From: an uncultured bacterium
GTDB taxonomy: Bacteria > Omnitrophota > Omnitrophia > Omnitrophales > Aquincolibacteriaceae
Reading direction: 5' to 3'
DNA: 64,000 nucleotides
Assembly: GCA_964606385.1 (NCBI GenBank)
Contig: CAZSFZ010000007.1
Span: 6,688-70,687, forward strand
A model generated the notes under the pieces. The model was not told where the DNA came from. It saw only the letters and a program-made list of their open reading frames with translations, and made no database searches. This document shows, one piece after another, positions 1-22,453 of the stretch; positions within the stretch are counted from its first letter, which is position 1, and the number at the start of each line of letters is the position of its first letter. The position numbers and the translations under genes are program-made.

Positions 1-96
1 GAATAACCGTCGATCAGCAACAGCTCGCTGGTTCCCCCCAAGCCTGCTTTTAACACCTCGAAAAGCTCGGAAAGAACGGTCGGGAGATTTTTCTCT

Positions 97-2010
97 TCAT
101 TTTTCGCCATGATCGCGAGAGAGACGTCGAAACTCGCCATACGGGTCGATATCCTTTCTTCGGACAATAAAAGGCTCGTCTTTCCCCAGATACGCTTCCA
201 GCATAAACGCATGCTCTTTGATAAATTCATCCCATCCAGTTCCCTCCGGCAAAAAGACCTTTTGCTCGTCGACTGTTTCTTCGTTGTACTGCGAAAGTTT
301 TTCGGAAGGAACGGTTTCAAAAAACATGATGTAGTTTTTATTCGTCTGCGGCGCAAGGTCCGCATAATACATGGAAACGCGATCATCCATAAGGTAAAAC
401 GACGGTCGGATCTTTTTACTTCTTCGGGTGGCCTCGAACAGGTCTGTCGAGTTGAGGCACACCCTTGACCAAAAATCTTCGAACGCGGCGGCTCGCACCG
501 AGATCTGCCGGGGGAAAACATAAAAAAAACTCAAAAGTTCCATCAAGATCACTGCGCTTAGGATCGTGTTTTTCCAGGGGCTTCCAGCGGCATAGAAGCT
601 CAAAATCGGGAACATCAAAACCGGAACAAAATAATGGGCGGGAACAACATCGGACCCCGTCGGCAATATTAAAATAAGCAGGGTCACTAAAAACATTAAA
701 AGCACATACCGGTTTTTAAGGCCCGTGATCAGAAAAACGCTAAGTCCTGCCGTAAAAATAAAGTAATTCTTGAGGTAGGCCAACAAAAATTTCGCGCTAA
801 ACGTTTCTTCCCGCAAACCCCTTATGTCGCCCAAAAACTCACGCAACATCTCTCCGAGGCCGTAAGATGAGAAAAGAAGGGAAAGGTGAAGCGTTAAGAT
901 CACAAAAAAAACTCCCGCCAGATACCATAAAAAACACTTCCATCGTTTGAATAACAAGGAAAAACCAAAAAGAAACACCGTGATCATAAATAATCCGTTA
1001 TAACGGATCATCGCGGCCAAAACAAAAAAGGCGGCGGCCAAACCGTTCCTGTGTTTTCCGCGCTTGACCAAAAGATAAAACCCACAAAGAAAAAAGAGCA
1101 GAAGCATGGTTTCGCTGCTTTTCGTGAGGTCCACGGGAGGGATATAATCCGCACGAAAAGCCACGATGGTGAAAAAAAGCAGTAAGTACAAAAAAACGGG
1201 TATGCTTTCCTTAATCCCAAGTTTTTGCCCGTTCCCGATCTCCTCGGCCGATGCCTTCAAAACCGGCCCCAAGGCCGCAAAAGCCATGAAAATGCTGAGC
1301 CTTGCGATAAATTCGGCGTTTCCGAGCAGGACCATCGCGAACATATTAAGATGGACCGAAGGTGCGAACGGAAATTGCGGGATCATGGTCAAGGGCGTGC
1401 GATACCCCGTCGGCAAAACCCCTGTTTTAAGGCTGTGCGCTAACCAGTATTGTTCCGCGCCATCTCCGTTAAAAAGAGCGAAAAAAAGTTTTTCCCGAAA
1501 AACATATAAAACGCTGACCAAAAAAACCGCGTAGAGAATGGCGAAGCTTTTTGATCCGGATTTTTTGGGGCTGGCCGTCGAAACCAAAGTTCGGGGTCTT
1601 GAAAAAGAGGGCCAGGCCAAACTCCATCCCGCCAAAACTCCGAGGCCCATCAGCGCCGACATGATCTCACGGGTGATTTCAAGGCCTGTAAAAAGCTTGA
1701 TCGCTGTGGTGGAAAAAAAATAATAAAAATAATTGATCAAGAATCCCTTAAAGGATATTTCCAGCACGCTTTCTCCAGGCTTCCTGAAGCGGTGCGCGAC
1801 AAAAACGCCCGGCACAAAATAGATCATCAGGGTCCCTGCCGTGACCGTCGCCGCGGAAAGGGCTTTGATCCACGGCGGAGAATGAACGATCCCGACCCAA
1901 AACGCCGGCACTGTTCCCCACGGCAACCCCTGCGAAAGGGAAAGCGCTTCGACGGCGCCTATATAAAAAACCCATAACGAAAAAGAAAACAAAAAGTTCC
2001 TTGAGGTCAT
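97..2010 (-). CDS. Large polytopic membrane protein, 12 or more predicted TM segments plus a soluble C-terminal domain of about 150 aa. Possible GT-C fold glycosyltransferase or polymerase-like protein. Last gene of the radical-SAM operon.
   Basis: The long ORF spans 97..2142. I place the start at the ATG at 2008-2010 (MTSRNFLF...), which abuts the stop of the upstream gene at 2024. Many hydrophobic stretches. I recognise no specific catalytic motif. Confidence 0.5.
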   Translation of the reverse strand: MTSRNFLFSFSLWVFYIGAVEALSLSQGLPWGTVPAFWVGIVHSPPWIKALSAATVTAGTLMIYFVPGVFVAHRFRKPGESVLEISFKGFLINYFYYFFSTTAIKLFTGLEITREIMSALMGLGVLAGWSLAWPSFSRPRTLVSTASPKKSGSKSFAILYAVFLVSVLYVFREKLFFALFNGDGAEQYWLAHSLKTGVLPTGYRTPLTMIPQFPFAPSVHLNMFAMVLLGNAEFIARLSIFMAFAALGPVLKASAEEIGNGQKLGIKESIPVFLYLLLFFTIVAFRADYIPPVDLTKSSETMLLLFFLCGFYLLVKRGKHRNGLAAAFFVLAAMIRYNGLFMITVFLFGFSLLFKRWKCFLWYLAGVFFVILTLHLSLLFSSYGLGEMLREFLGDIRGLREETFSAKFLLAYLKNYFIFTAGLSVFLITGLKNRYVLLMFLVTLLILILPTGSDVVPAHYFVPVLMFPILSFYAAGSPWKNTILSAVILMELLSFFYVFPRQISVRAAAFEDFWSRVCLNSTDLFEATRRSKKIRPSFYLMDDRVSMYYADLAPQTNKNYIMFFETVPSEKLSQYNEETVDEQKVFLPEGTGWDEFIKEHAFMLEAYLGKDEPFIVRRKDIDPYGEFRRLSRDHGEK

Positions 2011-2023
2011 ATGTCGATCCGCT

Positions 2024-3346
2024 TTATCCTCCGCCAAATTGAGACAGGGTCTGTTCATAAGACAGTTTCTCGACCTGGGCGTATTGAAAAACCTTGAGAT
2101 TGAAATCGCGGAATTTCCGTATCGAGAGATAAGTTCCCGCATTGTTTGCGAAAACGACTAGCGTGAAAAGGATTAAAAAAATATTCCTTAGGGCCTTTAG
2201 ATCCGACAAGGAAAAACCTTGAAATAAAATAACCAAAAAAGGCAGCAGGGCCGGCAAAGAATATAAGACGCACGACTCAGGACTAAAAAAACAAAAAAAC
2301 GTCGTGTGGACTACTTCAAACCCGACCAGCATCATGAAGGCGGGGGACAAGCCGCCGGCCCTTCGCTTGAAAAAACCAAAAAGCGACGCGACGACCAGGA
2401 ATGAATAGGTCATTCCAAAAAGAACCTGTGGGACTACAAAGCCGCTCAAGCGCGTGTACACGATCGAATCCACAAAAAAAGCCCTCAGAACGAGGAAAAT
2501 GTTGTAAACATCCCAGCGAAACCACCTCTGTAGATATTCCATTGAAAACTTAACCATACCCACGGGACCGAATCCTTCGCCGCCAGATAAATTGTAGAAG
2601 CGGTAGTAAAAATCATAAAAAACATAAACGCTCCCCGTCACAAGAAGGCCCCAAAATAAAACCGCCAGGCTTTTCACAACAGCCCTTTGGAAACTTCCGG
2701 ACTTGCAGAAAAAAAGGACCCCGACAGCAACGGACAGCCATATCATGGCCGTTGAAGCCAGAACACAAAGACCGAGCAACGCTCCAAGGACATGGGTTTT
2801 AGGGCCGGAAGGGGAGGGCCTCACACAATACCAAAAAAGAAAATTTTGAAACAGCGTCGTGACAACGTACGTCTCAACATTGGATGAAAAGATCCAAAAC
2901 GAAAAACATGCCCCGTAAAGAAGCGTCAACGCTTCCGCAAAAAATCCCGCTCGCTCCCCTTCAAAGACAGCTTGAAAAATCCTGTAGCTAACGATCAGAT
3001 TCAACAACCCCATAAGGGCAAAAGGGAAAATCAAGGCGCTCTCGTTTTGGAACGGCAACGCCGAAAACAAAATCCGGCCTAGCCAATAAAGCGGGATAAC
3101 GACCCACGGGAAAAGAGGATGTTTTTTGACGTCGCCCGGGTCTTCGATGGCGTCCGGTCTTGGGATGAGATCTCCTTTGACTATGCTCACATACTCAAAA
3201 TCATCTCCAACAGCAGTTTTTTTGCCGTCCAAATAATTGCCGATCGGAAAAGCGAGCAGGTAAAAAACAAAGTAAAGACCGAGCGCCGCGGGGAACGCGC
3301 GCTTGGCTGTTTTTAAAAAAAAGTCAGTTCTTTTTGTGGAGTTCAT
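2024..3346 (-). CDS. Polytopic membrane protein, GT-C-like. It has an acidic DDFEY motif in the first predicted extracytoplasmic loop, as seen in PMT/ArnT-like glycosyltransferases.
   Basis: The ORF spans 2024..3526. The internal start MNSTKRTDFF... at 3346 avoids overlap with the upstream gene. Multiple TM helices. A GDDFEY loop follows TM1. Confidence 0.5.
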   Translation of the reverse strand: MNSTKRTDFFLKTAKRAFPAALGLYFVFYLLAFPIGNYLDGKKTAVGDDFEYVSIVKGDLIPRPDAIEDPGDVKKHPLFPWVVIPLYWLGRILFSALPFQNESALIFPFALMGLLNLIVSYRIFQAVFEGERAGFFAEALTLLYGACFSFWIFSSNVETYVVTTLFQNFLFWYCVRPSPSGPKTHVLGALLGLCVLASTAMIWLSVAVGVLFFCKSGSFQRAVVKSLAVLFWGLLVTGSVYVFYDFYYRFYNLSGGEGFGPVGMVKFSMEYLQRWFRWDVYNIFLVLRAFFVDSIVYTRLSGFVVPQVLFGMTYSFLVVASLFGFFKRRAGGLSPAFMMLVGFEVVHTTFFCFFSPESCVLYSLPALLPFLVILFQGFSLSDLKALRNIFLILFTLVVFANNAGTYLSIRKFRDFNLKVFQYAQVEKLSYEQTLSQFGGG

Positions 3347-5465
3347 GGTCTTTGTGTTTTTGACAGCTGATTTTGATAAACGTCCAGAAGACCCCCAAAA
3401 GCTCCTGGGGGTTATAGAGCAGGTTGAAAGGCATGAAACACTCATTCGTGCAAAAGCATGCTCTGCTCTTAATAAGGTTTCGTATTTTTTCGGCTCGCGG
3501 CGAACTCCAGATCTTTCCCCAATCAAACTTTGCTTCTCTTAGATTCCCGAAAGGCTCGGGCGACTGTTCGCATGGAAAAACATCCCCGTCGGGAGAAATG
3601 ATCGCGTTAAGAATGCCCGCAAAACAGCGCATGGGATATTTTTTTTCGGTGAAGATTTGTTGTGTTTTTTCGGCCATTCTTATTTTGTAGGCCAGCCGAA
3701 ATCTCTCGAAAAAACCTTGTGTTAGATGAAAATACCTGCTGTTGATGTCTTTTAAAAGAGAAACATATTCATCGGCCTGAATAGCGCCATTGAGCCTGCT
3801 CGCTTGGGCCGGTCTTTCCAGCACAAGGCTGTATTGGTCGGGCCTCATTTTTAAAATTTCCACTTCAAAGAACTTCGGGACCTGATCCTTGTTTTCGCGG
3901 GTATAGGTCGTCAAAATGCCGACGATCAGGTTGGGGTAGATCTGTTTTAACTTTTTTAACCGGAAAAAAGATTCGCGTGTTCTTTCGAAAGCCCCCGCCT
4001 TCTGCCGCATCGCGTCATGAACGTCCGGCGGCCCATCCAAAGAAAGTTTTATTGAAATGCTTGTCGGTGAGCATTGCTCTAAGATCCTCTTCACGCCGTC
4101 GACAACGGCGTCGGGGTCATACCCATTCGTCAACAACGTGATTAAAACAGGCTTCAGATTCTTGTGAAGAACGCCAACCGCCTCGACAACGTCTCCCCGA
4201 AGAAACGGTTCCCCCCCGGTTACGGTAACATATTTGATCTTTGGCATCTTTTTTGTCGCACGGTCCATTTCATCCAAAGACAACTCCAGGCCAGAAAAGG
4301 ACTTTCCTTCCCCCAAGAAACAATGTGAACAGGCCAGGTTGCAGCGGTGGGTTAAAAAAAAGGTCGCTTGTTCAGGGGTTGTTTTATCTTTCCAAAATAA
4401 TTTTCGAGCGCTGTCGACACATTCCGCCGCAAAAATAAGCGCCTTCGCAATCCTTCCAAAGGTCCATTCCGAGAGGCCAAGGCACATCCCGAGTCCGATA
4501 GCGTTCAGCTGAAAAGCCATAAAAAGGATATACAAGGCACTTTGCATCGGATGCTGTTGCTGGGAGGCATAAGCAAGAAAGTCTTGGTTTAGAAGCGTCA
4601 TGACCAGGAAAGACAGGCTGGCGATAAGCGCATAAAAGGGGTTAGAGAACAAAAGGCCCGCGAGGACCCCCAGGGTAAAAACAAATGCGAGCGGAAAAGA
4701 ATAAATGAAGTTTTCATTTACCGCAAAAAATTTCTTTTCCCGGGCTAAATCACACAAGACCTTGCTGTTAACGGCGACCTTGATCCCCTCTCTCCCCGCT
4801 CTAAACTCCCTTTTTAGCAAAGAAAAAATGCTGAATTTTTTGCTGTGCAGAACTTTTATATCCTCGGCAAAATAGCTTTTGTAACCGTTCTTTATCAGCC
4901 GGTAACCGAAATCGCTGTCTTCAGCGCTCGGCATATTTCCAAATCCGCCCACATTTATAAAAACATTTTTTTCTACCGCCGCAAAGGAAGAGCCCAAAAA
5001 AGAAGTCCATCCTTTGAGCTTGGAAAGGTTATAACTCGTCCAGTAATTCTTGTATTGACTGACCCACCCTTTATCCAGTTCTTCTTTAGCTCTGTTCCCC
5101 ACGATCATGTCGGGAACAGGCTGGATTTTATGGCCCCTGAAGTATTCCGAAAGGATTTCTCCCGTCCCCGGCGGGAGCACAACATCCGCGTCAACAAAAA
5201 CCAGCACACTCCCTTTCGCGGCTCGGGCGCCTATATTCCGGGCCGCTCCGGCCCCTTGTTGCTTTCCGTTTCGGATATAGCGGATTTTCGGCTCGTCCTT
5301 GTCCAATATCCGCAGGGCACCTTTAGCGCCGTCTGTGGACTCATCATCCACTAAAATGAGCTCTAATACGCCATTCTGGCTCAAAATGGATTCTACGGTT
5401 CGAGCGAGCGTTGTTCGAGCGTTATGAAAGGGAACGATGTATGAAAAAGTCCGGCCTGTATTCAT
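3324..5465 (-). CDS. Fusion protein: N-terminal family-2 glycosyltransferase (GT2), a central segment of 3-4 TM helices, and a C-terminal radical-SAM domain with a SPASM-like Cys-rich tail.
   Basis: The N-terminus reads YIVPFHNARTTLARTVESILSQ...LILVDDESTDG...VFVDAD, a GT2 signature. Hydrophobic linker. Then THRCNLACSHCF (CxxxCxxC) and TGGEPFL. C-terminal cysteines CFAGILNAIISPDGDVFPCEQ...CFCTNECF. Confidence 0.7.
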   Translation of the reverse strand: MNTGRTFSYIVPFHNARTTLARTVESILSQNGVLELILVDDESTDGAKGALRILDKDEPKIRYIRNGKQQGAGAARNIGARAAKGSVLVFVDADVVLPPGTGEILSEYFRGHKIQPVPDMIVGNRAKEELDKGWVSQYKNYWTSYNLSKLKGWTSFLGSSFAAVEKNVFINVGGFGNMPSAEDSDFGYRLIKNGYKSYFAEDIKVLHSKKFSIFSLLKREFRAGREGIKVAVNSKVLCDLAREKKFFAVNENFIYSFPLAFVFTLGVLAGLLFSNPFYALIASLSFLVMTLLNQDFLAYASQQQHPMQSALYILFMAFQLNAIGLGMCLGLSEWTFGRIAKALIFAAECVDSARKLFWKDKTTPEQATFFLTHRCNLACSHCFLGEGKSFSGLELSLDEMDRATKKMPKIKYVTVTGGEPFLRGDVVEAVGVLHKNLKPVLITLLTNGYDPDAVVDGVKRILEQCSPTSISIKLSLDGPPDVHDAMRQKAGAFERTRESFFRLKKLKQIYPNLIVGILTTYTRENKDQVPKFFEVEILKMRPDQYSLVLERPAQASRLNGAIQADEYVSLLKDINSRYFHLTQGFFERFRLAYKIRMAEKTQQIFTEKKYPMRCFAGILNAIISPDGDVFPCEQSPEPFGNLREAKFDWGKIWSSPRAEKIRNLIKSRACFCTNECFMPFNLLYNPQELLGVFWTFIKISCQKHKDHELHKKN

Positions 5466-5473
5466 TCGGGGTT

Positions 5474-6889
5474 TTAGCCTTTTCGCAATAGCTTCACAAG
5501 GGAGGTAAAGTTCCTTTTAAGGTCCCAGACCCCCCGGATATTCGAGATCCTTTTGAGAATGAACGAGGGCCTAAAATAAAAGCTCTTGTTGGCTTTCTTG
5601 ACCATCGCGATCGCTTTTTCCTTAGGAAAACCTTCAAGTTCCAAACTGCCGTTGATCTCCCATCCTCCGGCGAACGCCTGTTTTTTTTCTTTCATGTACC
5701 AGTGCCGGTCGGACAAGGCTTGGTGGTGCTGGGCCCAGTGATAAATCTCGGTTCCGGGGTATGCGATGGTTAAAAAAGTGAAGGCGAGATCGAGGTTGAG
5801 GGCTTTAATAAAGGCGATCGTTTGTTTCGCGTCCTCTTCGGTCTCTGTGGGGTTGCCGATCATAAAATTTCCGATCGTTTGTATTCCGACTTTTTTGCAC
5901 AGCGCTACAGCTTTTCGGATGTGATCGGTTGTCATTCCTTTCTTCAGCGCATTCAAAATTTTTTGACTCCCCGATTCGATGCCGAAACTGATAAAACAGC
6001 AACCGCTTTGTTTCATGGCCTTTAAAAGCGCTTCATCCAGAAGGTCCGCCCGGGTATTACAGCTCCAGTATATTTTTAACCTTCTTTTCTGGATCTCGGA
6101 ACAAACGTCGTAAACCCATTGCTTGTCCGCGGTGAAAGTGCTGTCTTTGATGACGAATTGTTTGATCCGGTATTTCTGGTAATCCTCTAGCATTTCACCA
6201 ACGACATTCGCGGGCGAACGAAGTCTGAAACGCTTTCCGTGAACTAAGGAGGCGCTGCAGTAAATGCATTGGTAAGGGCACCCCCGTGACGCCAGAATGG
6301 ATGTCAGCGGGAGGGATTTTGCGTAGTAAATATCGTATTTTTTGATATCTAAGAGATCCAGGTCGGGGAACGGAAGCTCATCAAGGTTTTCTATGGTGAG
6401 AGGGGGATCATTGACGATGACCCGTCCTTCTTTTTTATAAATCAACCCTCGAATGTCCGCTAAAGTCGTTCCACTTTCCAGAGCCTTCACGAGGTTATAA
6501 ACCTCTTTTTCGCCTTCCCCATAAAACAAAAAATCGATATTTTCCGTGAACTGAAGCAGTTCTGCCCGGGTAGCGTTCACATGATGCCCCCCTACAATGA
6601 TCTTTAGGGATGGCTTTCTCTTTTTGAGCTCCGCGGTCAGCTCCAGAACCCCTCCGATCTGGATCGTCATGGCGCTAAGACCCACCATCACCGGCTCTTC
6701 TTTTAAGATCTCTCCAACGAGTTTTTCCAGCGTATGGCCCTGAATAGACGCATCGATCAGCCTGACATCGACGCCTTTTTTGCGTAAAAAAGTCGCGATG
6801 TATAAGACGCCCAGCGGAGGCAGTCCCAAGTGCTCTTTTCTTCCAAAAACAATGGGGGGATAAACCAAGACTACTTTGGCCATGAACAC
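5474..6889 (-). CDS. B12-binding-domain radical-SAM enzyme (class B; methyltransferase or rearrangement type).
   Basis: N-terminal cobalamin-binding Rossmann-like region (VVLVYPP...GLPPLGVLYIATFLRKKGVDVRLID). SRGCPYQCIYC radical-SAM cluster motif. Length of 471 aa is typical for this class. Confidence 0.7.
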   Translation of the reverse strand: MFMAKVVLVYPPIVFGRKEHLGLPPLGVLYIATFLRKKGVDVRLIDASIQGHTLEKLVGEILKEEPVMVGLSAMTIQIGGVLELTAELKKRKPSLKIIVGGHHVNATRAELLQFTENIDFLFYGEGEKEVYNLVKALESGTTLADIRGLIYKKEGRVIVNDPPLTIENLDELPFPDLDLLDIKKYDIYYAKSLPLTSILASRGCPYQCIYCSASLVHGKRFRLRSPANVVGEMLEDYQKYRIKQFVIKDSTFTADKQWVYDVCSEIQKRRLKIYWSCNTRADLLDEALLKAMKQSGCCFISFGIESGSQKILNALKKGMTTDHIRKAVALCKKVGIQTIGNFMIGNPTETEEDAKQTIAFIKALNLDLAFTFLTIAYPGTEIYHWAQHHQALSDRHWYMKEKKQAFAGGWEINGSLELEGFPKEKAIAMVKKANKSFYFRPSFILKRISNIRGVWDLKRNFTSLVKLLRKG

Positions 6890-6896
6890 ATCGCTT

Positions 6897-7910
6897 TCAT
6901 TGGTTTTTCCCCGTTGTTTTTAACCATTCTTGAATCGTTGACCGATCGAATGAAAAAACCAGATTCGCCTCTAGACAACAAGCGCTTAAACAGCTCCTGC
7001 ATGACGAGTCTTTCAGTCGTTGAAAGGCTCCCTTGAAGCCATGCTGCAGGACGTTCGCGGGAGCGGTGTGCCCGATCATGGGGGAGCACGGGTACATGTC
7101 GCCATTCGTATCGATGTTGCAAAACAGCTTCCCCGCCCAGCATTTTGGCATCCCCCGAAGTTGTTCTGTAGAGGTGGTATCTTGAAAAAAAGGCCAGTCG
7201 GCCACCGCTCTCAAGTAGCACCGTGACGAGACGATGGGCGCGCCCGCATCTTTCATTTCGATTAAACGGTTAAAAGTTTTTCGGTAAGCATCCGCTGAAG
7301 CAAAAATGTTTTCCGAAGAACCGATGCCTCGGGGGTGATAAGGAACCTGGAACAGGGTTTTAAAGCCATATTCTTTGGCTTTCTCAGCGATAAACTCCGT
7401 GCAATGGATGTTGTGTTGGGTGAGCACGGTCAGCGTCCAGACAGGAATCCTTCCGCGAATAAACTCCACGGCGCGAAAAAATTTGTCATACGAACCGGGT
7501 TCCCTGTTCCGGTCGTGCAGTTCTCTCTCGCCGTCAAAACTGAGGATCAAAAAATCCAGGTCCTTGATTTCGTCGAATCTCTGAGGCACAAGATAGCCGT
7601 TGGAGTCGCAATTGACATAAAGACCTTTTTCCTTCGCGCGACCAATAAGACGGCCGATGTCTTTGCGTAACAACGGTTCCCCGCCCCACAAGCTCAATTT
7701 CTGCACCCCTGCCGCGGCCATTTCATCGATCAGCCCGAGGAGCTCCTTGGTGCTCATTTCTTTTTGTCTTCTTAGCGGTATGTCGCAATAAGCACATTTG
7801 CTGTTGCAGCGATTCGTCACGGAAAGCATGACGCTTAGCGGCACTCTCGCTCCGAAGAGATTGGCCCTCAAGGCGCCCAGGCCCATGGCCACATTATTTT
7901 TGAGCTTCAT
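6897..7910 (-). CDS. Radical-SAM/SPASM domain protein.
   Basis: SVTNRCNSKCAYCDIPL (CxxxCxxC), GGEPLL, and a C-terminal Cys cluster CWAGKLFCNIDTNGDMYPC...CRSCLSACC. Its ATG overlaps the stop of the upstream gene in an ATGA arrangement. Confidence 0.7.
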   Translation of the reverse strand: MKLKNNVAMGLGALRANLFGARVPLSVMLSVTNRCNSKCAYCDIPLRRQKEMSTKELLGLIDEMAAAGVQKLSLWGGEPLLRKDIGRLIGRAKEKGLYVNCDSNGYLVPQRFDEIKDLDFLILSFDGERELHDRNREPGSYDKFFRAVEFIRGRIPVWTLTVLTQHNIHCTEFIAEKAKEYGFKTLFQVPYHPRGIGSSENIFASADAYRKTFNRLIEMKDAGAPIVSSRCYLRAVADWPFFQDTTSTEQLRGMPKCWAGKLFCNIDTNGDMYPCSPMIGHTAPANVLQHGFKGAFQRLKDSSCRSCLSACCLEANLVFSFDRSTIQEWLKTTGKNQ

Positions 7911-9316
7911 GGTTTCCCGTCAGCCGCATGGTTTTTTAAATACCGGTCCGCGATCTCCAGCCCCATGGCGATCACATCGTCCATGTTGCCGTATTTGAAA
8001 GAGCCGTTCCGCCCGAAACACACGAGGTTTGCGAACGGGTCAAGGAGCCTGCGGGCCGCCGCGACGTGGTCCCGGTAATTCATCTGATAAATGGGGTAAC
8101 TGTACCGGACCTTATGATAAAAAAATCCCCTCGCCCTTTTTGCTTTTTCGGTCTGGAGCCCTAATTTTGCGATATCCCGCAAGATCCTTTCGCGGATCTT
8201 CTCGGGGGGCATCTCCCACGTCTCATCTCCGTAATCACAGCTGATCTCGGCGCAAATAACGGTTCGGCCTGCAGGGAACCCGTGCTTCGAGAAGTTTTTG
8301 GGTTCGGAGATCCGGTTACTGAAAAATCCTTCTTCGGGCAGATAGATCCACTGGCTGTCGCTGAAAGAATCCACGTCGAGCACGAGATAAAAAAAGATCA
8401 GGGACCGGAATCTCAGCTTTTCAAAAACCTCTTTCTTCCCAAGGAGTTCTTGGTCCGCCAGGAGCTCCGGAAGTTCCGTCATGGGAATGGTTGACAGCAG
8501 GTCCGTAACATCGGCTTCCTGTTCTTGCCCCCCGTTTTCAAATGCCACGGACCGGATCCGAGTCTTCTGACCTTCTTTTTTTTCGCTAAGAATTCGCGTA
8601 ATGCGGGTATTTAAAAGCACTTGAGAGCCGTTCTCGAGGATCTTTTTCTTCAGATTCTCGGCAATCCGCCCGATCCCTCCCTCTTTGGGATAGTAAAAAT
8701 GGTTCGCGTAAGCGCGTGCCGGTCCTTGTGAGCGAAAGAGGGTTTCTTGCATGGCGCTCCACAAACTAAGCAGATTGATCCTTTCCTGCGCCCAATCTTT
8801 GGAGATCTGGTGGGGCGGAAGTCCCAACACTTTGTGGGTATAGGTGCCAAAGAAGATCCGGTAGAGTGTTTTCCCGAAGCGTTTGGTGACCCAGGATTCG
8901 AACGAGTCCTCGCCCCCGGGACAAAAAAGACCGCACAGCTTCGCCGTCACATAATCATAAAAACACTTCAGCAGCGTGCGTAGCGGCATGTTCTCCAGGA
9001 TGTTGTGGGTGTTTAGGGGATAAATGAAAAAGCGGTCATTCATAAAGATCTCGCTTTTTCTTTTTTGGACGATGAGATTCTCTCCCATGAGCTCTTTGAG
9101 CAGGCGAATCACGGATTGTCTTTTGGAGTGAAACCGGTGAGGGCCGTAATCATACGACAAGCCTTGCAACTCGCGGCTTGCGGCAAGACCGCCAACCATG
9201 GGCTCCTTTTCAAGCACCAGGACTTTGACGCCTTGGCTGGAAAGCCTGTAAGCGCAGGATAAACCCGCCAATCCTGCTCCCAAAATAACAGGGCTTGATT
9301 TTTTAGTTTCTGTCAC
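7907..9316 (-). CDS. FAD/NAD(P)-binding oxidoreductase of the amine-oxidase / UDP-galactopyranose-mutase / desaturase superfamily.
   Basis: N-terminal dinucleotide-binding motif VILGAGLAGLSCAYRL...VLVLEKEPMVGGLA. YGPHRFHS motif resembling the Glf/amine-oxidase family. 469 aa. Confidence 0.6.
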   Translation of the reverse strand: MTETKKSSPVILGAGLAGLSCAYRLSSQGVKVLVLEKEPMVGGLAASRELQGLSYDYGPHRFHSKRQSVIRLLKELMGENLIVQKRKSEIFMNDRFFIYPLNTHNILENMPLRTLLKCFYDYVTAKLCGLFCPGGEDSFESWVTKRFGKTLYRIFFGTYTHKVLGLPPHQISKDWAQERINLLSLWSAMQETLFRSQGPARAYANHFYYPKEGGIGRIAENLKKKILENGSQVLLNTRITRILSEKKEGQKTRIRSVAFENGGQEQEADVTDLLSTIPMTELPELLADQELLGKKEVFEKLRFRSLIFFYLVLDVDSFSDSQWIYLPEEGFFSNRISEPKNFSKHGFPAGRTVICAEISCDYGDETWEMPPEKIRERILRDIAKLGLQTEKAKRARGFFYHKVRYSYPIYQMNYRDHVAAARRLLDPFANLVCFGRNGSFKYGNMDDVIAMGLEIADRYLKNHAADGKP

Positions 9317-9347
9317 GTTCGCTTATCCTGGTAAAAATGCTGTTTTT

Positions 9348-10565
9348 TTATCGCGATATGCGCCGGCTTTCTTCCGCTAATAACCGCTTCATGCGATTCA
9401 GATCCTCCAGAGCCGCTGAAAGCTCCTTGGGATTCCACTTATTGGGTTTGTTGGGTCTTGTGCCTTGGCTTAGTTTGCCCTTAACGCGCCTTAAAGCGCT
9501 CGAAGCATTTCCTCGCCAAGACGAATAAAATTTTATTCTTTTCTTCCATCGGTTGATGCTCGAAGCAATGTATCCGGCCAATCCTTTTTTCCGTAATCGC
9601 CCCAGCCGGGTAAAAATCTTTTGGCCCAAAGACGCCTTCCCAAGATTCTCTTCATAACAGCTCATCAGGCATCCCTGGCACCCTTTTCGATTAATGGCGG
9701 AAATGATTTCACTTCGCCGGGTGGAATTCCAAATATCTTTTAAGCTTTTTTCCTTCACGGAGCCCAGTAGGTGTTCAGGGCCGCTCAGGACCCAGCAGGG
9801 ATAGACTTCTCCTCTAGCATTAATGGGGCATGAAAGGTCTAAGGCGGGGCATTTTTTTGGATTGGCGCCTTTCTTTCCGGTCAGAGATCGGAACATTTCG
9901 TAAAGATACTTTTCAGGGTTGGTGCCAATGCCATACTCACAACAGGTTTCAATCACGTTGAAGATCGTCTGCTTAAAAAGCGGCGCGTCTTGGTCGGAAA
10001 GATAAAAGCTTTTTTCTTGTTTCCCCGGATCCAAAAACATCGGGTTGAATGGCTGCAGCTTAAATGCGGTGACGCCTTGTTGCTTGGCCAGCTCGATAAG
10101 ATATGGCAAGTGTTGAAAATTGCCGGCCGTCACAACGGTAGCGATCGTGGATTCGATCCCGTATTTTTTTAAATTCTTCAATGCCGTCAGGGCGCGGTCA
10201 AAGCTGCCTTTTCCCCTGAGCGCGTCATGCATTTCGCGAGGGCCTTCAACGGAAACGTTTACCACGTCCACGCCCGCACAAAGAAGCTCGTAAGCGCGTT
10301 TTTCATCGAGCAAAAGACCGTTGGTGGTGACGCAGGTCAGCATTTTTTGTTTCTTCGCGAAGGCGATGAGAGAAGCTAGATCGTCCCGCAGGAGCGGCTC
10401 CCCCCCGCTGAAAACGGCCGTCGTGGCGCCCACCGCAGCACCGTCTCGAATGACGTTTTCCCAGGTGCTCGTCCCCAGCTCTTCGGTGCTCGTTAACGGA
10501 ATGTCGCACATGCGGCACCGCAGATTGCAGCGGGTCGTGATGGAAAGAATAAGATCTTTAGGCAT
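9348..10565 (-). CDS. Radical-SAM/SPASM domain protein with a basic C-terminal tail. Paralogue of the gene at 6897-7910.
   Basis: SITTRCNLRCRMCDIPL, SGGEPLL, and a C-terminal Cys cluster CPALDLSCPINARGEVYPC...CQGCLMSC. Confidence 0.7.
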   Translation of the reverse strand: MPKDLILSITTRCNLRCRMCDIPLTSTEELGTSTWENVIRDGAAVGATTAVFSGGEPLLRDDLASLIAFAKKQKMLTCVTTNGLLLDEKRAYELLCAGVDVVNVSVEGPREMHDALRGKGSFDRALTALKNLKKYGIESTIATVVTAGNFQHLPYLIELAKQQGVTAFKLQPFNPMFLDPGKQEKSFYLSDQDAPLFKQTIFNVIETCCEYGIGTNPEKYLYEMFRSLTGKKGANPKKCPALDLSCPINARGEVYPCWVLSGPEHLLGSVKEKSLKDIWNSTRRSEIISAINRKGCQGCLMSCYEENLGKASLGQKIFTRLGRLRKKGLAGYIASSINRWKKRIKFYSSWRGNASSALRRVKGKLSQGTRPNKPNKWNPKELSAALEDLNRMKRLLAEESRRISR

Positions 10566-11730
10566 CGTGGGTCTTGGCCAAAAGCTCCTTCTCGTAATTC
10601 TCGATGACTCGCTGGGCCTCTCTTAAGAGCTCGGCGCGGTCTTCTCGGCCATGGATCTGTTTAAGAAAATTCTCCGCGATCCCCTGGAGAGAGTCCGATT
10701 CCGGATGGGCCCAACAGGTTTGCAGGCAGGGTTTTTGACATTGTTTCATGCCGGCCCTGGCCTTGCCGGCCTCGGCGCTTTCCAGGCACGCGTCCAGCCC
10801 GCCTTCCGCGATATTCCCAAAACTCGCCCCGCAGCTGCGGACTTCGCCGTCCGGACCGATATTGAGAAAAACAAAAGGATTGCACTTCCATTGTTTTTTT
10901 GTGAGAGCGCCCTTGAAGTGGTCGACCCAGAGATAAGGGTCGTGCAGAAAAGCCACCAGCCCGTGCTGTTTCTGGTATTCGACGATCCTGTCGATTTGAT
11001 GTTTTAAGGCGTCCACTTTTTCACCGCGGATCCAAAAAGGAGCGTTGGGGGAAGTGTTCTGCATATCGTCTTGAGCGACCACCACGGGATGATAGACCAA
11101 GCATTCCACCCCCAAACTCTTCGCCAGAGGGATCATATCGTAAAGCTCGTCCACGTTTTCCTTCATGATGGTGACCCAGGAGGAGATCTGAGGTCCGGCG
11201 CCGGCTTTCTTTTTTGCTTCCGCGAGGCGTTTTAAGGCGGTGGTTGCCTTGAGAAACGCCCCTTTTTGCCGTACGGCATCATGGGTTTTTTCTTGGCTTC
11301 CGTCCAGGGAAACAGCGATGTTTTGCAGTCCCGAGCAAACGATCTTTTGGGCGAGATCCTCGGTGATTAACGATCCATTCGAAACCGCCTCGGCTTTAAG
11401 TCCTTTGCGGACCGCGTGCCTGATCAGATCGAAGATGTCTTTACGGAGGAACGGCTCTCCTCCGGTAAAAAGCACCACGCAGTCCCGTCCCCAGGCCGCG
11501 ATCTCGTCGAGCGTTTTCATGACGCTTCCGGTTGAAAGCGAGTGCCCTTTGAGGATGTTGACCACGCCGCACATTTGGCATTTGAACGTGCACTCGTGGC
11601 TCAGGCTGATGTAGATCCAGTACGGCTTGGCAAAAAGGTGTCCCGACCGTTCGGAAAAGTGATATTCCAGGTTCTTTTTGAGCTCTTGCAGCGGGTCTGT
11701 TTTTAGATTCATTTTCCGGGATTCTTCCAT
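10558..11730 (-). CDS. Radical-SAM/SPASM domain protein. First gene of the operon.
   Basis: SLSHECTFKCQMCG, TGGEPFL, and a C-terminal cluster CNPFVFLNIGPDGEVRSCGA...CQKPCLQTC. The start is placed at MEESRKMNLK (11728-11730). The ORF extends upstream to 11790. Confidence 0.65.
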   Translation of the reverse strand: MEESRKMNLKTDPLQELKKNLEYHFSERSGHLFAKPYWIYISLSHECTFKCQMCGVVNILKGHSLSTGSVMKTLDEIAAWGRDCVVLFTGGEPFLRKDIFDLIRHAVRKGLKAEAVSNGSLITEDLAQKIVCSGLQNIAVSLDGSQEKTHDAVRQKGAFLKATTALKRLAEAKKKAGAGPQISSWVTIMKENVDELYDMIPLAKSLGVECLVYHPVVVAQDDMQNTSPNAPFWIRGEKVDALKHQIDRIVEYQKQHGLVAFLHDPYLWVDHFKGALTKKQWKCNPFVFLNIGPDGEVRSCGASFGNIAEGGLDACLESAEAGKARAGMKQCQKPCLQTCWAHPESDSLQGIAENFLKQIHGREDRAELLREAQRVIENYEKELLAKTHDA

Positions 11731-11845
11731 GGACAGTACTGCGTAGTTTACCCGCACTAAAATAAAAAAGCCATCGAGATTAACTCTCAATGGCGATTGA
11801 TTTTAGATCGTTCGAAGCTTCTGTTTTTACGGCTTCCCGAACTGC

Positions 11846-13003
11846 TTATCCTTTCACCGCCGCCAAGGGAGATAATTCCACCATAATTTCCACAAGGTCG
11901 GCCTGCTGCTTCATGACTTCAGCGATGTCTTTGTAAGCTCCCGGGGCTTCGTCAAGCTCGTGGGCGCTTCGGATGCCGTGGACAATGCCTTGAGCCTCCA
12001 TCTTCTGGATCTCCGCCTGAAGGTCCAGTGAGCGCCTCGCCTCTTTCCTTCCCATCTTTCTTCCCGCGCCGTGGGAACAAGACTCGAAGCTCTCGGGGTT
12101 GCCTTTTCCCGTCACAATATAGCTTTTTGCTCCCTGGGAACCCGGGATAATACCGGTCTCTCCCGCTTGGGCCGACGTCGCGCCCTTACGGTGCACCCAG
12201 ACCTCCTGGCCAAAATGACGCTCCTTTCGCGCGTAGTTGTGAGCGATATTGATGAGCGGTTCAAAAGAGCAGGCGATGTTCCGCGTAAAGCATTCCGCGA
12301 TCTGCTCCATCATGAGCTTTCTGTTCCCGAAGGCAAACTCCACGCAATAATTCATCTCACGGATATAGTCCTGCCCTTCCTCGCTTTGTTCCGGTAAATA
12401 GGCGAGCTGGTGAGCGGGAGAAACGGGTGAGCCCTGCTTCATATTGAGGGTGGACGCGATCCTGTTGTAATGGTCCGCAACTTGCTTTCCAAGATTCCGG
12501 CTCCCGCTATGGACCATCACCCAGACCGCTCCGTCAGAGCCTTTTTGGATCTCAATAAAGTGGTTTCCGCCGCCGAGCGTTCCGATCTGGAAGGTGGCGT
12601 GTCGATATTCCCTTTCGCATACCGCGCCTCTTTCAAATCGTTTTCCGGGCATATAGGCATTATCCTGCCGTTCTTTGTGGTGATTAAAACCGATAGGGAT
12701 GGCGGCGCGGATCTGCCCCATGATCTTTTTCAACGTTTCCCGATCTATGGTTTCCAGGCTGGAGCGCATGGCACACATTCCGCAGCCGATATCGACGCCC
12801 ACGGCGTTCGGAATGATCACGCCCTTGGCGGCCAGAACGCCTCCGATAGGCATGCCGTAACCCTGGTGGCTGTCGGGCATAACAGCAATGTGATGAAAAG
12901 CAAAAGGGAGGTTGGCGAGGTTCCGGAGCTGGCTCATCGCGCCTTCTTCGAGGTCCTCGAGCCACATCTTGATCGGGATCTTTTCAGTGCGGCAGGTCTT
13001 CAT
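11846..13003 (-). CDS. rtcB: RNA-splicing ligase RtcB (3'-phosphate/5'-OH RNA ligase).
   Basis: IPIKMWLEDL...FHHIAVMPDSHQGYGMPIGGVLAAKGVIIPNAVGVDIGCGM is colinear with E. coli RtcB. The ORF extends upstream to 13069. I put the start at the internal M of MKTCRTEK... Confidence 0.8.
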   Translation of the reverse strand: MKTCRTEKIPIKMWLEDLEEGAMSQLRNLANLPFAFHHIAVMPDSHQGYGMPIGGVLAAKGVIIPNAVGVDIGCGMCAMRSSLETIDRETLKKIMGQIRAAIPIGFNHHKERQDNAYMPGKRFERGAVCEREYRHATFQIGTLGGGNHFIEIQKGSDGAVWVMVHSGSRNLGKQVADHYNRIASTLNMKQGSPVSPAHQLAYLPEQSEEGQDYIREMNYCVEFAFGNRKLMMEQIAECFTRNIACSFEPLINIAHNYARKERHFGQEVWVHRKGATSAQAGETGIIPGSQGAKSYIVTGKGNPESFESCSHGAGRKMGRKEARRSLDLQAEIQKMEAQGIVHGIRSAHELDEAPGAYKDIAEVMKQQADLVEIMVELSPLAAVKG

Positions 13004-13090
13004 GCGACAGCCTTTCCAGAGCCTAAATTCCGCCTCCTGGGAGCATTCTAAGCCATCACAGCCCCTCAAACAACCCTTGTGCCCCGCCCC

Positions 13091-13855
13091 CTATTCGATC
13101 GAAAAGCTGGCGTTCACGACGGCTGTGACTTTCTTGCTAAGCGAGCTTGTGTCGTTCATGCCCCAGTCGGATATTTCCGTGGAGTTCACGGGCGTGATCT
13201 GAAAAACGCCCATTTTGGCCGAGCGCATGAACCCGATCCGGTTGCCCGTAGCCTGGACCATGTTCTCGGCCCGGAGCTTCGCGTTTTCTGTGGCTTTAGC
13301 GAGCATTTCCACCTTCAACTCGTCGAGCTTGGTGTAAAAATATTCGGGGCTCCCGGAATAAAACTCAATCCCCTCGTTAATAAGTCCCGTGGCTTCCCGT
13401 GAGATCCGCGCTATTTTCTCGACGTCGTTTGACCGAAGCTCGACGGTTTGACGGAGGCGGTAGCCCTCGATCGTATTCGTGTCGTTCCCCTTCTCGTTCT
13501 TTTGATAAAGCGTCTCGGTCGCGATCTGCTGAACAAGGATCTCCGGTTCCGGAATTCCCTGGGCGACAAGGTATTGTTTCACCTGAGCAAGATCGCCGCT
13601 CAGTTTCTGGTAAGCCGACGCCATGTCCGTTTCCCTCCGGGAAAAAGATCCGGTCCAGACCGCGTAGTCGCTTTGAATGTCTTTTTGCGCGGACCCCGTC
13701 ACGGTGATCTGCTCGCGCATGAATTTCGTGACCGACAAGAACCCTTTGGAAAAAATAAGGCTGGAGGCGATCGTGGCGCCGGCGATACATAGCCCGAGAA
13801 TGATGATCTGGGTGTTCTTAAGAAAATTCATTTTCTTTGACGGTTGTTCTTCCAT
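13091..13855 (-). CDS. SIMPL-domain protein (DUF541 / BP26-OMP28-like periplasmic protein).
   Basis: N-terminal TM/signal segment, about 250 aa, pattern typical of the SIMPL family (VTGSAQKDIQSDYAVWTGSF...). Family call is from memory. Confidence 0.5.
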   Translation of the reverse strand: MEEQPSKKMNFLKNTQIIILGLCIAGATIASSLIFSKGFLSVTKFMREQITVTGSAQKDIQSDYAVWTGSFSRRETDMASAYQKLSGDLAQVKQYLVAQGIPEPEILVQQIATETLYQKNEKGNDTNTIEGYRLRQTVELRSNDVEKIARISREATGLINEGIEFYSGSPEYFYTKLDELKVEMLAKATENAKLRAENMVQATGNRIGFMRSAKMGVFQITPVNSTEISDWGMNDTSSLSKKVTAVVNASFSIE

Positions 13856-14080
13856 GGCGGGACTCCTTCTCTTGTTGCGGGCGCTACGCGCGCGGGTTTG
13901 TGTGCTTGGATTTTCCTGCGGGTCCTGATTTTCAGCTTTCAGGCTGAGGGCTATCGTCCGTAGTCTGTGGTCTGAAACGGGCTCACTGGAACACTATTTA
14001 CGGCTGCGGGAGGCAAAACTGAATGTAGTAAAAACTAGCGTTTCGCATGGGAAAACGACGGTCGTTTTTCACAAGAACAA

Positions 14081-14173
14081 CGGAGGGGGGGGGATTTGAA
14101 CCCCCGGTACCTGCTTTCACAAGTACAGCGGTTTAGCAAACCGCCGCCTTAAGCCGGGCTCGGCCACCCCTCC
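14081..14173 (-). tRNA. tRNA-Ser, anticodon GCU, with a long variable arm.
   Basis: The reverse complement folds as acceptor GGAGGGG/CCCCTCC, T-arm GGGGG-TTCAAAT-CCCCC, anticodon stem GCGGT/ACCGC, and loop TTGCTAA. No CCA is encoded. Confidence 0.8.
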
Positions 14174-14280
14174 AAATGAGCATCTGCCTTACGGAGCCTG
14201 CGGCGTAGCTGTACGAGGTTTTCGCTAAATCTCGACGGCTACGTCGTCATGTTTTCAATAAAACCAGTATGAGAACATGG

Positions 14281-14368
14281 CGGAGAGGGCGAGATTCGAA
14301 CTCGCGAGGCCTTTTGGGCCTACCCGCTTTCCAGGCGAGCGCACTAGACCAGGCTATGCGACCTCTCC
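14281..14368 (-). tRNA. tRNA-Ser, anticodon GGA, with a long variable arm.
   Basis: The reverse complement has acceptor GGAGAGG/CCTCTCC, T-arm GCGAG-TTCGAAT-CTCGC, anticodon loop CTGGAAA, and variable-arm stem GGCC/GGCC. Confidence 0.8.
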
Positions 14369-15776: not shown

Positions 15777-15789
15777 GGGTCACAAGCTC

Positions 15790-18303: not shown

Positions 18304-18328
18304 TTTTTGCGTTCCTTTTTATGCTTTA

Positions 18329-20896
<2,568 letters not shown>

Positions 20897-21184
20897 TTAT
20901 TTCCCGACCAGCACCCGAACCTCTTTAACTGCTTGTTCCCCGAGCGCCGCCTGCGCCCGTTTTAATAGCGATTGCCGGTATCGTTGGCTGATCTCGAACG
21001 CCAGGACGGAATCGCTCACGTGAACATACAGGATCCCTTTGGAGGAAAGCTGCGGTCTGGTTTTTTTTACAAGTTTTTCCCCTGCGATGCTTGGCCAGGA
21101 GTCTATCAACAAGCTCCGTTTTTGTTTTTCGGGGTCTTCAAAACCCCGGATCACCTTCGGAAGGATCGATCGAATCTCGTCCAT
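20897..21184 (-). CDS. dciA: DUF721 domain protein, likely DciA (replicative-helicase operator/loader). It sits where recF normally is.
   Basis: 95-aa protein between dnaN and gyrB. Its size and position match the DUF721/DciA family. Confidence 0.55.
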   Translation of the reverse strand: MDEIRSILPKVIRGFEDPEKQKRSLLIDSWPSIAGEKLVKKTRPQLSSKGILYVHVSDSVLAFEISQRYRQSLLKRAQAALGEQAVKEVRVLVGK

Positions 21185-21217
21185 GAAATACCGTTCTATT
21201 ATCGTCCTTTTTCGCCG

Positions 21218-22318: not shown

Positions 22319-22453
22319 GGAAAACTCCTTATGCTTTTATGCTATATTTTAAAAAACAGTAATCAAAGTAGTAGAACTTGTGAAATTGTGGATATCCTAC
22401 ACAACTATCTTAAAAAGAACGATATATAAAAAAGTTTTTTTGTGGAAAAAAAG

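Follow-up and report, generated by a model that had tools for sequence, protein, structure and literature searches.

We conclude that an operon at the beginning of the 64,000-nucleotide stretch of Omnitrophota DNA analyzed here (positions 6,688 to 70,687 of contig CAZSFZ010000007.1, assembly GCA_964606385.1; the whole stretch is referred to below as the window) probably assembles an envelope glycan or glycoconjugate by way of polyprenyl-phosphate-linked sugars and tailors it by radical chemistry. Eight co-directional genes of the operon lie within the window, on the minus strand at 97-11730. They encode radical S-adenosylmethionine (SAM) enzymes, a flavoprotein, a protein in which a family 2 glycosyltransferase (GT2) is joined through transmembrane (TM) helices to a radical SAM domain, and two polytopic membrane proteins resembling GT-C glycosyltransferases (Table 1). 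Beyond the window the operon extends by four further co-directional genes, located on the native 21-kb contig (L002) and followed by a convergent gene for a glycoside hydrolase of family 5 (GH5). In total it comprises 12 tightly packed genes with six radical SAM domains, one of these fused to GT2. The overall reading draws on domain content, predicted folds, and gene neighborhoods; any specific reaction within it is much less certain.

The GT2-radical SAM fusion and its relatives

The 713-residue fusion protein consists of a GT2 domain (residues 1-230), a linker of some four hydrophobic helices (~253-350), and a radical SAM domain with a SPASM-like C terminus (360-690). Pfam recognizes Glycos_transf_2 (3e-28), Radical_SAM (1e-17), and SPASM (1e-8), and the GT2 part also matches Glyco_transf_21 and Glyco_tranf_2_3. 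Across 24 full-length fusions, D40, D92xD94, E182, and H207 of the glycosyltransferase are invariant and D183 is nearly so (90% or more). Equally invariant in the radical SAM part are C375x3C379x2C382, the GGEP motif (G417-G418-E419-P420), and C614, C632, C670, C672, and C676. The linker is rich in lysine and arginine on both flanks, a pattern consistent with both domains facing the cytoplasm.

Homologues of the fusion with 45-82% identity derive from Omnitrophota metagenome-assembled genomes (MAGs), and for both the fusion and the 440-residue membrane protein the closest homologues that carry a name (49-57% identity) belong to Candidatus Omnitrophota MAGs. No GTDB representative genome matches at species level (30-34% identity at best). 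Among these genomes, the combination of GT2 and radical SAM mostly has a split form, in which a GT2 with TM helices (~330-400 residues) is followed by an adjacent, often overlapping radical SAM gene (~355-390 residues). Such split pairs occur in Planctomycetia, Limnocylindria, Anaerolineales, Myxococcota, Clostridia, Melainabacteria, Chloroflexota, Gammaproteobacteria, and Malonomonas, and the GT2-radical SAM coupling recurs in at least ten phyla. Three distant metagenomic relatives are built differently. P0087 has the reversed order, radical SAM before GT2, and P0071 reads GT2-TPR-radical SAM/SPASM. P0035 combines GT2, GtrA/DPMS_TM, methyltransferase, and radical SAM domains; it is the sole family member with PF04138, and its radical SAM part aligns across the whole radical SAM region of the fusion. 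That fusion has occurred repeatedly and independently strongly suggests that the GT2 and radical SAM domains share one substrate molecule.

Within the operon, the radical SAM domain of the fusion is closest to that of rSAM-358 (28% identity, 2.5e-32), whose gene overlaps that of the small glycosyltransferase GT2-231. The operon therefore appears to hold two GT2/radical SAM modules, one fused and the other split.

The genes found near GT2-radical SAM relatives include those for GT2, NDP-sugar epimerases and dehydratases, DegT, PMT_2, GT87, Wzy_C, GT4, GT9, and NeuB or CMP-sugar synthesis, and one distant fusion adjoins a GT87 protein, which is also of the GT-C type. A Pfam census of 105 open reading frames (ORFs) located within 5 kb of a GT2/radical SAM pair, at 13 loci in other phyla, was dominated by glycan families: GT2 (20 ORFs), radical SAM (15), NDP-sugar epimerase/dehydratase (4), DegT aminotransferase, PMT_2, and Polysacc_synt_2 (3 each), and NTP_transferase and Wzy_C (2 each). 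None of the commonest families is of RiPP type. The GT2-radical SAM coupling, found in a glycan setting in every case, behaves like the conserved core of a variable surface-glycan locus.

The same variability is seen closer to home. In a close relative (loci L009 and L010), whose fusion is 82% identical, all 12 genes occur in order behind the same rtcB and SIMPL-domain genes, and the proteins are 78-93% identical. In Omnitrophota relatives at 45-53% identity, the gene company of the fusion differs from locus to locus. L005 has the 440-residue GT-C-like protein directly downstream of the fusion, as here (44% identity), together with a radical SAM of the 337-residue type, a 66%-identical B12-binding radical SAM, PMT_2 proteins, a small GT2, an SGNH-like protein, a TPR protein, and, again adjacent, a 59%-identical GH5. 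L006 carries sialic-acid-type genes, two B12-binding radical SAMs, GT1/GT4, a WecA/MraY-type transferase, Wzy_C, and GT9, and L008 carries several radical SAMs, one of them B12 binding, with large membrane proteins and a small GT2. Two side observations concern these relatives. In L009 (20444-22142) and L010 (18857-20555), the gene after the operon encodes not GH5 but a 1,007-residue protein with sulfatase (LtaS/EptA-type), GDPD, and TPR domains. The 53%-identical relative (L004/L005, 3054-6653) has, upstream of its fusion gene, a gene for a 1,199-residue protein with faint beta-propeller/PQQ-repeat matches and two MiaB-like radical SAM genes.

Membrane proteins and putative lipid-carrier enzymes

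Pfam and NCBIfam return essentially nothing for the two membrane proteins and 16 of their relatives beyond one weak PMT_2 match, that of the 440-residue protein (3.6e-4, under the cut-off), and Pfam has no model for either family. A fold search was therefore needed, and it found the GT-C transmembrane fold in both proteins. The AlphaFold2 model of the 440-residue protein, built from a 5-sequence alignment, has modest confidence (pLDDT 63, pTM 0.67), and we take its fold matches as supporting evidence only; its top 18 Foldseek matches in the PDB are all GT-C enzymes (STT3, AglB, ALG12, PglB, and ArnT). Structural neighbors of both membrane proteins include STT3, AglB, PglB, PMT, and DPY19, and those of the 653-residue protein also include AftA, AftB, AftD, and EmbA.

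Both families are small. A word-indexed search of 5.8 billion proteins returned five homologues of the 440-residue protein, and the 653-residue protein has 27 relatives among 1.84 billion representatives. A family model of the former matches an ORF adjoining a radical SAM gene in L025. The 440-residue family has an invariant GDDxEY after the first TM helix, and the 653-residue family has a nearly invariant G..E within GDGxEQ(Y/F)W, also after a TM helix. These acidic-aromatic motifs appear to resemble the first-loop motif of ArnT/PMT-type enzymes and would lie in a loop that is predicted to be extracytoplasmic.

The only named PDB matches of GT2-231 are the dolichyl-phosphate mannose (Dol-P-Man) synthase 5mlz (1.4e-12, over the whole glycosyltransferase domain) and ArnC. 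Its best NCBIfam matches are AglJ (108 bits), PpgS, a Dol-P-hexose transferase, and ArnC, the first three under their cut-offs of 325-375, and hydropathy indicates no TM segment. Given these matches, GT2-231 looks like a polyprenyl-phosphate sugar synthase. Enzymes of this kind are the usual makers of donors for GT-C glycosyltransferases.

The two SGNH-TPR paralogues each begin with an N-terminal membrane anchor. Direct reading of the translations indicates that the SGNH domain is interrupted by the TPR array, with the catalytic blocks GESTT, G, and GIND ahead of it and DFGH behind it in both proteins; Pfam Lipase_GDSL_2 scores 31.1 bits versus a cut-off of 32.9.

Radical SAM enzymes and the flavoprotein

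Pfam places Radical_SAM in five of the eight proteins encoded in the window. The CxxxCxxC motif is present in all five radical SAM domains, and each of the four that do not bind B12 ends in a cluster of 5 to 7 cysteines. SPASM scores above threshold in the 405-residue protein and the fusion and just below it in the 390-residue protein (19.4 bits; Radical_SAM, 1e-17), and it is not scored in the 337-residue protein. The 405-residue enzyme (Radical_SAM, 2e-25; SPASM, 1e-9) has its best PDB matches in BlsE, PqqE, and anSME. The 337-residue enzyme (Radical_SAM, 2.7e-22; cysteines at 257, 264, 275, 304, 307, 311, and 312) matches BlsE best among PDB structures (1.3e-12), and its top NCBIfam match is the PTO1314 family, at 103 bits versus a cut-off of 306. 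Its homologues in L005, L008, and L011 are 30-35% identical.

By domain content, the B12-binding protein is a bona fide class-B radical SAM enzyme: both PF02310 (3e-22, 79 bits) and PF04055 (1e-22, 81.5 bits) exceed their gathering scores, and its cluster motif, CPYQCIYC, begins at residue 202. Its homologues (26-66% identical) are encoded close to the fusion in L005, L006, L008, L012, L022, and L023. In NCBIfam it scores highest against HpnJ (238 bits) and BchE (211 bits), falling far short of either cut-off, and AprD4, OxsB, and TsrM are the best PDB matches. Membership in HpnJ, BchE, or any other curated family is rejected, as no curated cut-off is reached.

The flavoprotein matches Pfam Amino_oxidase (6e-27) and, with partial model coverage, GLF (3e-6; 27.5 bits versus 26.3). 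In NCBIfam it is closest to PRK07208.1-4, an uncharacterized "hypothetical protein" family (323 bits versus a cut-off of 389), and it scores 71 bits against TIGR00031, the curated UDP-galactopyranose mutase (UGM) model, whose cut-off is 303.75. It aligns full-length to the eukaryote-type UGM of Trypanosoma cruzi, 4dsg (7e-18). In the HMMER alignment with 4dsg, the flavin-side histidine (GPH against GGH), one arginine, and two tyrosines are kept, and the arginine of the mobile flap is replaced by glycine. The active-site residues of UGM considered in this comparison are the flavin-side histidine, two diphosphate-binding arginines, and two tyrosines.

Anti-phage defense was considered as a separate role for these enzymes and rejected: in PADLOC the SPASM-type radical SAMs give pVip-family matches of 25-65 bits that cover the N-terminal radical SAM half only. 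The B12-binding enzyme gives 54 bits to the candidate system PDC-M51A, and the flavoprotein gives 37 bits over its dinucleotide-binding N terminus (a "C-3',4' desaturase" model). PADLOC returned no match for the membrane proteins or rtcB.

Operon organization

The initial annotation described eight close-packed minus-strand genes at most 31 bp apart, and this is borne out by the ORF listing and by independent gene calls on public contigs that encode identical proteins. At four of the junctions the genes overlap, by 8, 4, 23, and 35 nt, and at the other three they are 31, 13, and 8 nt apart; the 13-nt gap shrinks to 7 nt if a longer ORF start is used, and the 23-nt overlap is that between the start of the 440-residue protein gene and the fusion gene. 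The gene contents it listed (SPASM-type radical SAMs, a B12-binding radical SAM, a Glf-like flavoprotein, a GT2 domain, and two membrane proteins) likewise agree with the Pfam run, and the membrane proteins are polytopic. Its count of eight genes for the operon as a whole does not stand, as the native contig shows 12 and the window cuts the operon, a fact that could not be known from the window itself.

Table 1. Genes and other features of the operon, in the window (10 upper rows) and on its native contig L002 (4 lower rows)
Feature	Location	Strand or orientation	Remarks
Radical SAM, 390 aa, first operon gene	10558-11730	minus	6-Cys C-terminal cluster
Radical SAM/SPASM, 405 aa	9348-10565	minus	
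Flavoprotein, 469 aa	7907-9316	minus	UDP-galactopyranose mutase/amine oxidase fold
Radical SAM, 337 aa	6897-7910	minus	7-Cys SPASM-like C terminus
Class-B (B12-binding) radical SAM, 469 aa	5474-6883	minus	
GT2-TM-radical SAM/SPASM fusion, 713 aa	3324-5465	minus	
Polytopic membrane protein, 440 aa	2024-3346	minus	GT-C-like
Polytopic membrane protein, 653 aa	97-2058	minus	GT-C fold and C-terminal soluble domain
First 46 codons of ninth operon gene (231-aa GT2)	1-140	minus	leaves the window at its start; reads MASFDVSLAIMAKNEEKNLP...
rtcB-operon intergenic region, 115 nt	11731-11845	minus	hairpin and T-run at 11794-11770
GT2-231, 231 aa	L002 11919-12614	co-directional with operon	
rSAM-358, sixth radical SAM/SPASM, 358 aa	L002, continuation of operon		overlaps GT2-231 by 25 nt
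Two paralogous SGNH-TPR proteins, 477 and 625 aa	L002 13692-16999		continuation of operon
GH5 protein, 418 aa	L002, after operon	convergent	lipoprotein-type signal

The 115-bp gap that had been noted between the operon and rtcB is present and presumably holds the operon promoter; no sigma-70-like promoter was called in it. Just past the rtcB stop codon, a terminator scan and direct reading both identify a terminator-like hairpin of 10 bp followed by a T-run, TTTTTTATTT. The gene call on the contig starts the 390-residue radical SAM at the ATG at 11730, and a longer ORF from a TTG would cross this hairpin. The position of the hairpin and T-run after the rtcB stop argues for the operon as a separate transcription unit, beginning from ATG 11730.

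Directly upstream (11846-13855) are rtcB, which encodes an RNA ligase, and a SIMPL-domain gene, in the same position as in the close relative. The GC content of the operon is 0.46-0.50 (window 1-10000), compared to 0.53-0.57 for most of the window, with the minimum over the membrane protein genes. This could reflect the codon bias of TM segments or a horizontally exchanged glycan locus.

Proposed pathway and alternative explanations

In the pathway that we favor, the UGM-like flavoenzyme, the B12-binding enzyme, and the soluble SPASM-type radical SAMs would reshape sugar units at the cytoplasmic face of the membrane. Candidate reactions are a change of ring form, C-methylation, anaerobic dehydrogenation, epimerization, decarboxylation, and dehydration. 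The two GT2/radical SAM modules (the fusion, and GT2-231 with rSAM-358) would attach a sugar to an acceptor in the membrane, where the sugar would then be modified, and for GT2-231 this acceptor would most likely be polyprenyl phosphate. After flipping, the two GT-C enzymes, assigned at the level of fold, would pass the lipid-linked sugars to an acceptor at the periplasmic face. The membrane-anchored pair of SGNH-TPR proteins may acylate, deacylate, or hold the resulting polymer, and the neighboring GH5 lipoprotein may trim it. The initial annotation had pointed to a glycan or glycolipid built at the membrane, and this idea gains strength from the GT-C folds, from the resemblance of GT2-231 to Dol-P-Man synthase and ArnC, from the UGM alignment, and from the glycan genes in the neighborhoods of relatives.

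Several observations weigh against this pathway. As no operon protein reaches an NCBIfam curated cut-off, every assignment is made at the level of superfamily or fold, and the fold of the 440-residue protein depends on a model of low confidence. The GT2 domain of the fusion resembles generic membrane GT2 enzymes (best matches MftF, EpsD, chondroitin synthase, and PgaC) and matches Dol-P-Man synthase at 1e-4 only; it may load a polyprenyl phosphate, but it may equally extend a polymer chain or glycosylate a lipid. In seven family members, the TM linker gives no Pfam match to GtrA/DPMS (PF04138) even at E = 10. Among the operon proteins, Pfam detects neither a flippase of the GtrA type nor Wzx, Wzy, an ABC exporter, or a porin of the outer membrane. 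Finally, the initial annotation had made its reading depend on conservation of the gene set in related genomes. This holds in full for the relative with the 82%-identical fusion, where every gene is kept; farther out, only a partial set travels together, and the flavoprotein and the 653-residue GT-C protein are absent from L005, L006, and L008.

The nearest competing explanation is a pathway for a glycolipid head group, in which the GT2 of the fusion would glycosylate a membrane lipid and the radical SAMs, including the HpnJ-like B12-binding enzyme, would rearrange the sugar. An example would be contraction of the sugar ring to give a cyclitol, which has been proposed for hopanoid HpnI/HpnK/HpnJ and for the Sulfolobus calditol synthase (Cds). 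We consider this unlikely, though it deserves more weight than the other alternatives. HpnJ is the top curated match of the B12-binding enzyme, Glyco_transf_21 and Glyco_tranf_2_3 are families that include lipid glycosyltransferases, a glycosyltransferase joined to a radical SAM by TM helices would suit a membrane-resident substrate, and HpnJ and Cds provide a precedent for radical SAM action on lipid-linked sugars (PMC13459092). However, HpnJ (TIGR03471) scores 238.5 bits versus a cut-off of 577.6, and HpnH (TIGR03470) scores 54.6-58.4 bits versus 225, so the Hpn likeness suggested in the initial annotation does not amount to family membership. In a published survey, HpnI and HpnJ domains are confined to genomes that also have squalene-hopene cyclase (SHC) and HpnH (PMC12324291), whereas no SHC is found among the annotated genes of the window and the 21-kb contig. 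Two GT-C proteins, a Dol-P-Man-synthase-like GT2, periplasmic SGNH-TPR proteins, and a GH5 also suit a periplasmic glycan better than a lipid head group. Protein glycosylation differs from the favored pathway in the acceptor only: the GT-C enzymes would act like PMT, PglB, or AglB and attach the radically modified sugars to proteins of the surface or periplasm. The structural neighbors STT3, AglB, PglB, PMT, and DPY19 shared by both membrane proteins fit this, as does the top curated match of GT2-231, AglJ, which comes from archaeal S-layer N-glycosylation. We nevertheless regard it as improbable, since lipid or glycan transferases of the ArnT, ALG, Aft, and Emb types score as well as protein glycosyltransferases, the 440-residue protein lacks a soluble peptide-binding domain (judging from hydropathy and a near-wholly helical AlphaFold2 model), and the conserved adjoining GH5 and SGNH proteins suggest a polysaccharide.

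Two further explanations appear highly improbable. One is that the SPASM-type radical SAMs are maturases of a ribosomally made, post-translationally modified peptide (RiPP) or glycopeptide, tailored by the glycosyltransferases, with a precursor that is encoded elsewhere or is a larger protein. In genome mining, radical-SAM-rich clusters from phyla like these are routinely given a RiPP label (PMC9902471), and the SPASM-type enzymes score comparably against models of sactipeptide, PqqE, MftC, and SCIFF maturases. These scores are far under the cut-offs, however (45-114 bits versus 265-850 for PqqE, MftC, AlbA, SCIFF, StsB, and other maturase families), and the conserved partners are glycan enzymes. 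There is no intergenic room for a precursor, as gaps within the operon are at most 31 nt and the 115-nt upstream gap holds no small ORF in the same strand. No operon protein matches the RiPP recognition element (RRE)/PqqD domain (PF05402), and since CxxxCxxC begins at residues 13-47 in the stand-alone radical SAMs (at residue 13 in the 405-residue protein), these leave no room for an N-terminal RRE. No peptidase or exporter is encoded in the operon or found among the 25 commonest Pfam families of the 105 census ORFs. On these grounds we reject a RiPP cluster, and the earlier judgment that the operon has no precursor peptide and is not a RiPP locus survives the tests of precursor space, small ORFs, RRE/PqqD, and neighbors. 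A 33-residue gene call occurs once, in L004, and is absent from other loci. The other explanation, to which we give equally little weight, is modification of lipid hydrocarbon chains, yielding membrane-spanning or branched lipids of the Tes, Mss, Hbs, Grs, or ladderane type. Homologues of Hbs and Mss have been reported in Omnitrophota MAGs (10.1101/2023.10.20.563219), as have "ladderane-type" clusters in the phylum, and the B12-binding enzyme matches the ladderane-associated model TIGR04072 at 160 bits. The cut-off of that model is 360, and the tetraether synthase GDGT-MAS (7tol), the only tetraether or membrane-spanning lipid enzyme in our comparison, which did not include Hbs and Mss sequences, matches just 90-160 residues of the radical SAM core (E values of 3.5e-8 and 1.9e-5). 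Fatty-acid, isoprenoid, and glycerol-ether genes are absent from the operon, where every gene that is not a radical SAM is glycan related. Membership in a hopanoid or tetraether lipid pathway is therefore rejected, with the Hpn scores below their cut-offs and the likeness to GDGT-MAS restricted to the radical SAM core, and the membrane-spanning-lipid option (Tes/Grs) of the initial annotation is not supported.

Chromosomal setting

The window spans the region of the chromosomal replication origin (14505-30740), with serS, gyrA, gyrB, dnaN, and dnaA (22454-23809) on the minus strand and yidC, mnmG, parA, and parB on the plus strand. DnaA-box-like 9-mers are enriched (16 versus an expected 6.6), perfect boxes lie at 21661 and 23929, and GC content dips around 22-24 kb. 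This setting indicates that the operon is chromosomal and not on a mobile element.

Two tRNA-Ser genes, with anticodons GCT and GGA, lie on the minus strand at 14080-14174 and 14278-14368, just downstream of serS. A possible beta-glucan utilization locus at 30907-38192 encodes a sugar-binding solute-binding protein, a GH94 phosphorylase (846 aa), a PF10091 "glucoamylase"-like protein (696 aa), and a ROK-family protein. It is followed at 38217-44921 by biotin-synthesis-like genes encoding a BioB-type radical SAM with a BATS domain, a ketoacyl-synthase-like protein, and class I/II and class III aminotransferases; the ORF at 42407-43570 among them has no Pfam match. polA is located at 50535-53261 and rho at 53815-55290.

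Significance and comparison with known systems

To our knowledge, nearly all radical SAM enzymes with sugar substrates belong to antibiotic pathways, and for lipid-linked sugars there are two cases defined by genetics, HpnJ and Cds. Our literature search, which covered fusions of glycosyltransferases with radical SAMs as well as radical SAMs in polysaccharide and O-antigen clusters, turned up no study of this family, of GT2-radical SAM fusions, or of a radical-SAM-rich envelope-glycan operon, and returned incidental mentions only (e.g., of a Brachyspira plasmid block with a radical SAM and a glycosyltransferase). This, together with the NCBIfam scores, upholds the initial statement that no characterized cluster has this composition.

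The coupling of a membrane GT2 to a SPASM-type radical SAM offers a testable entry to new radical carbohydrate chemistry at the membrane. We tentatively suggest that the fusions and split pairs may represent a widespread, undescribed enzyme class whose radical chemistry would act on a sugar freshly attached to its carrier (polyprenyl phosphate or a lipid) before export by GT-C enzymes. This is a possibility rather than an expectation; if true, it would add a new type of step to bacterial surface-glycan assembly, mainly in anaerobes, and would yield sugar structures that are not yet cataloged. The operon is also of interest for the makeup of the cell envelope in Omnitrophota, which are mostly uncultured and whose surface is thought to be relevant to a host-attached lifestyle, and it adds two very rare families to the GT-C superfamily. 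For genome mining it is a caution, as clusters of this type will probably be counted as RiPP or "ladderane" clusters.

Among known systems, the synthase-dependent exopolysaccharide systems (Bcs, Pga, Alg, and Ccs) share with the operon a membrane GT2, a periplasmic TPR component, a putative SGNH-type modifier (compare AlgX/AlgJ), and an adjoining glycoside hydrolase, for which we take the GH5 enzyme CcsZ to be the counterpart of the neighboring GH5. In contrast to those systems, no PilZ/cyclic di-GMP module, outer-membrane porin domain, or clear QxxRW was identified in the operon, and its GT-C proteins and radical SAMs are foreign to them. The sugar-tailoring radical SAMs BlsE, BtrN, AprD4, GenK, and OxsB, from natural-product biosynthesis, act on sugars without a peptide substrate, and solved structures from this group are among the best matches here: BlsE for two of the SPASM-type enzymes, and AprD4 and OxsB, together with TsrM, for the B12-binding enzyme. 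This likeness is only marginally above that to PqqE, anSME, and SkfB, and the operon context is a lipid-carrier envelope glycan, not an aminoglycoside or nucleoside antibiotic.

In the HpnI/HpnK/HpnJ and Cds pathways, a glycosyltransferase sets a sugar on a membrane lipid and a radical SAM rearranges it (PMC13459092). HpnJ is also the model against which the B12-binding enzyme scores best. Unlike in those pathways, the scores against HpnJ and HpnH stay below their cut-offs, none of SHC, HpnG, and HpnK was found, and the GT-C, SGNH-TPR, and GH5 proteins have no counterpart there. Decaprenyl-phosphoribose epimerization by DprE1/DprE2, which supplies the GT-C arabinosyltransferases Emb and Aft, follows a shared logic, redox remodeling of a polyprenyl-phosphate monosaccharide and then GT-C transfer, and it is a precedent for modifying a carrier-linked sugar ahead of that transfer. 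AftA, AftB, AftD, and EmbA are the structural neighbors of the 653-residue protein noted above. Whereas DprE1 is a VAO-type enzyme, remodeling here would fall to radical SAMs and a UGM-like flavoprotein, which have no sequence relationship to it.

Closest in plan are the three-component systems ArnC/ArnD/ArnT, GtrA/GtrB/GtrC, CsbB/GtcA/YfhO, and PpgS/Rv3779, which resemble the operon in having a small Dol-P-Man-synthase/ArnC-like GT2 and GT-C transferases in one operon. ArnD is a precedent for altering a sugar while it is on its lipid carrier, before GT-C transfer. Unlike these systems, the operon has no GtrA-type flippase, its two GT-C proteins come from unannotated families, none of its proteins reaches a curated cut-off, and it encodes six radical SAM domains, one covalently fused to GT2. 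Glycosylation loci of this general kind, in which lipid carriers and GT-C transferases are combined with tailoring enzymes, are known; what is new is the load of radical SAM enzymes and the coupling of GT2 to radical SAM.

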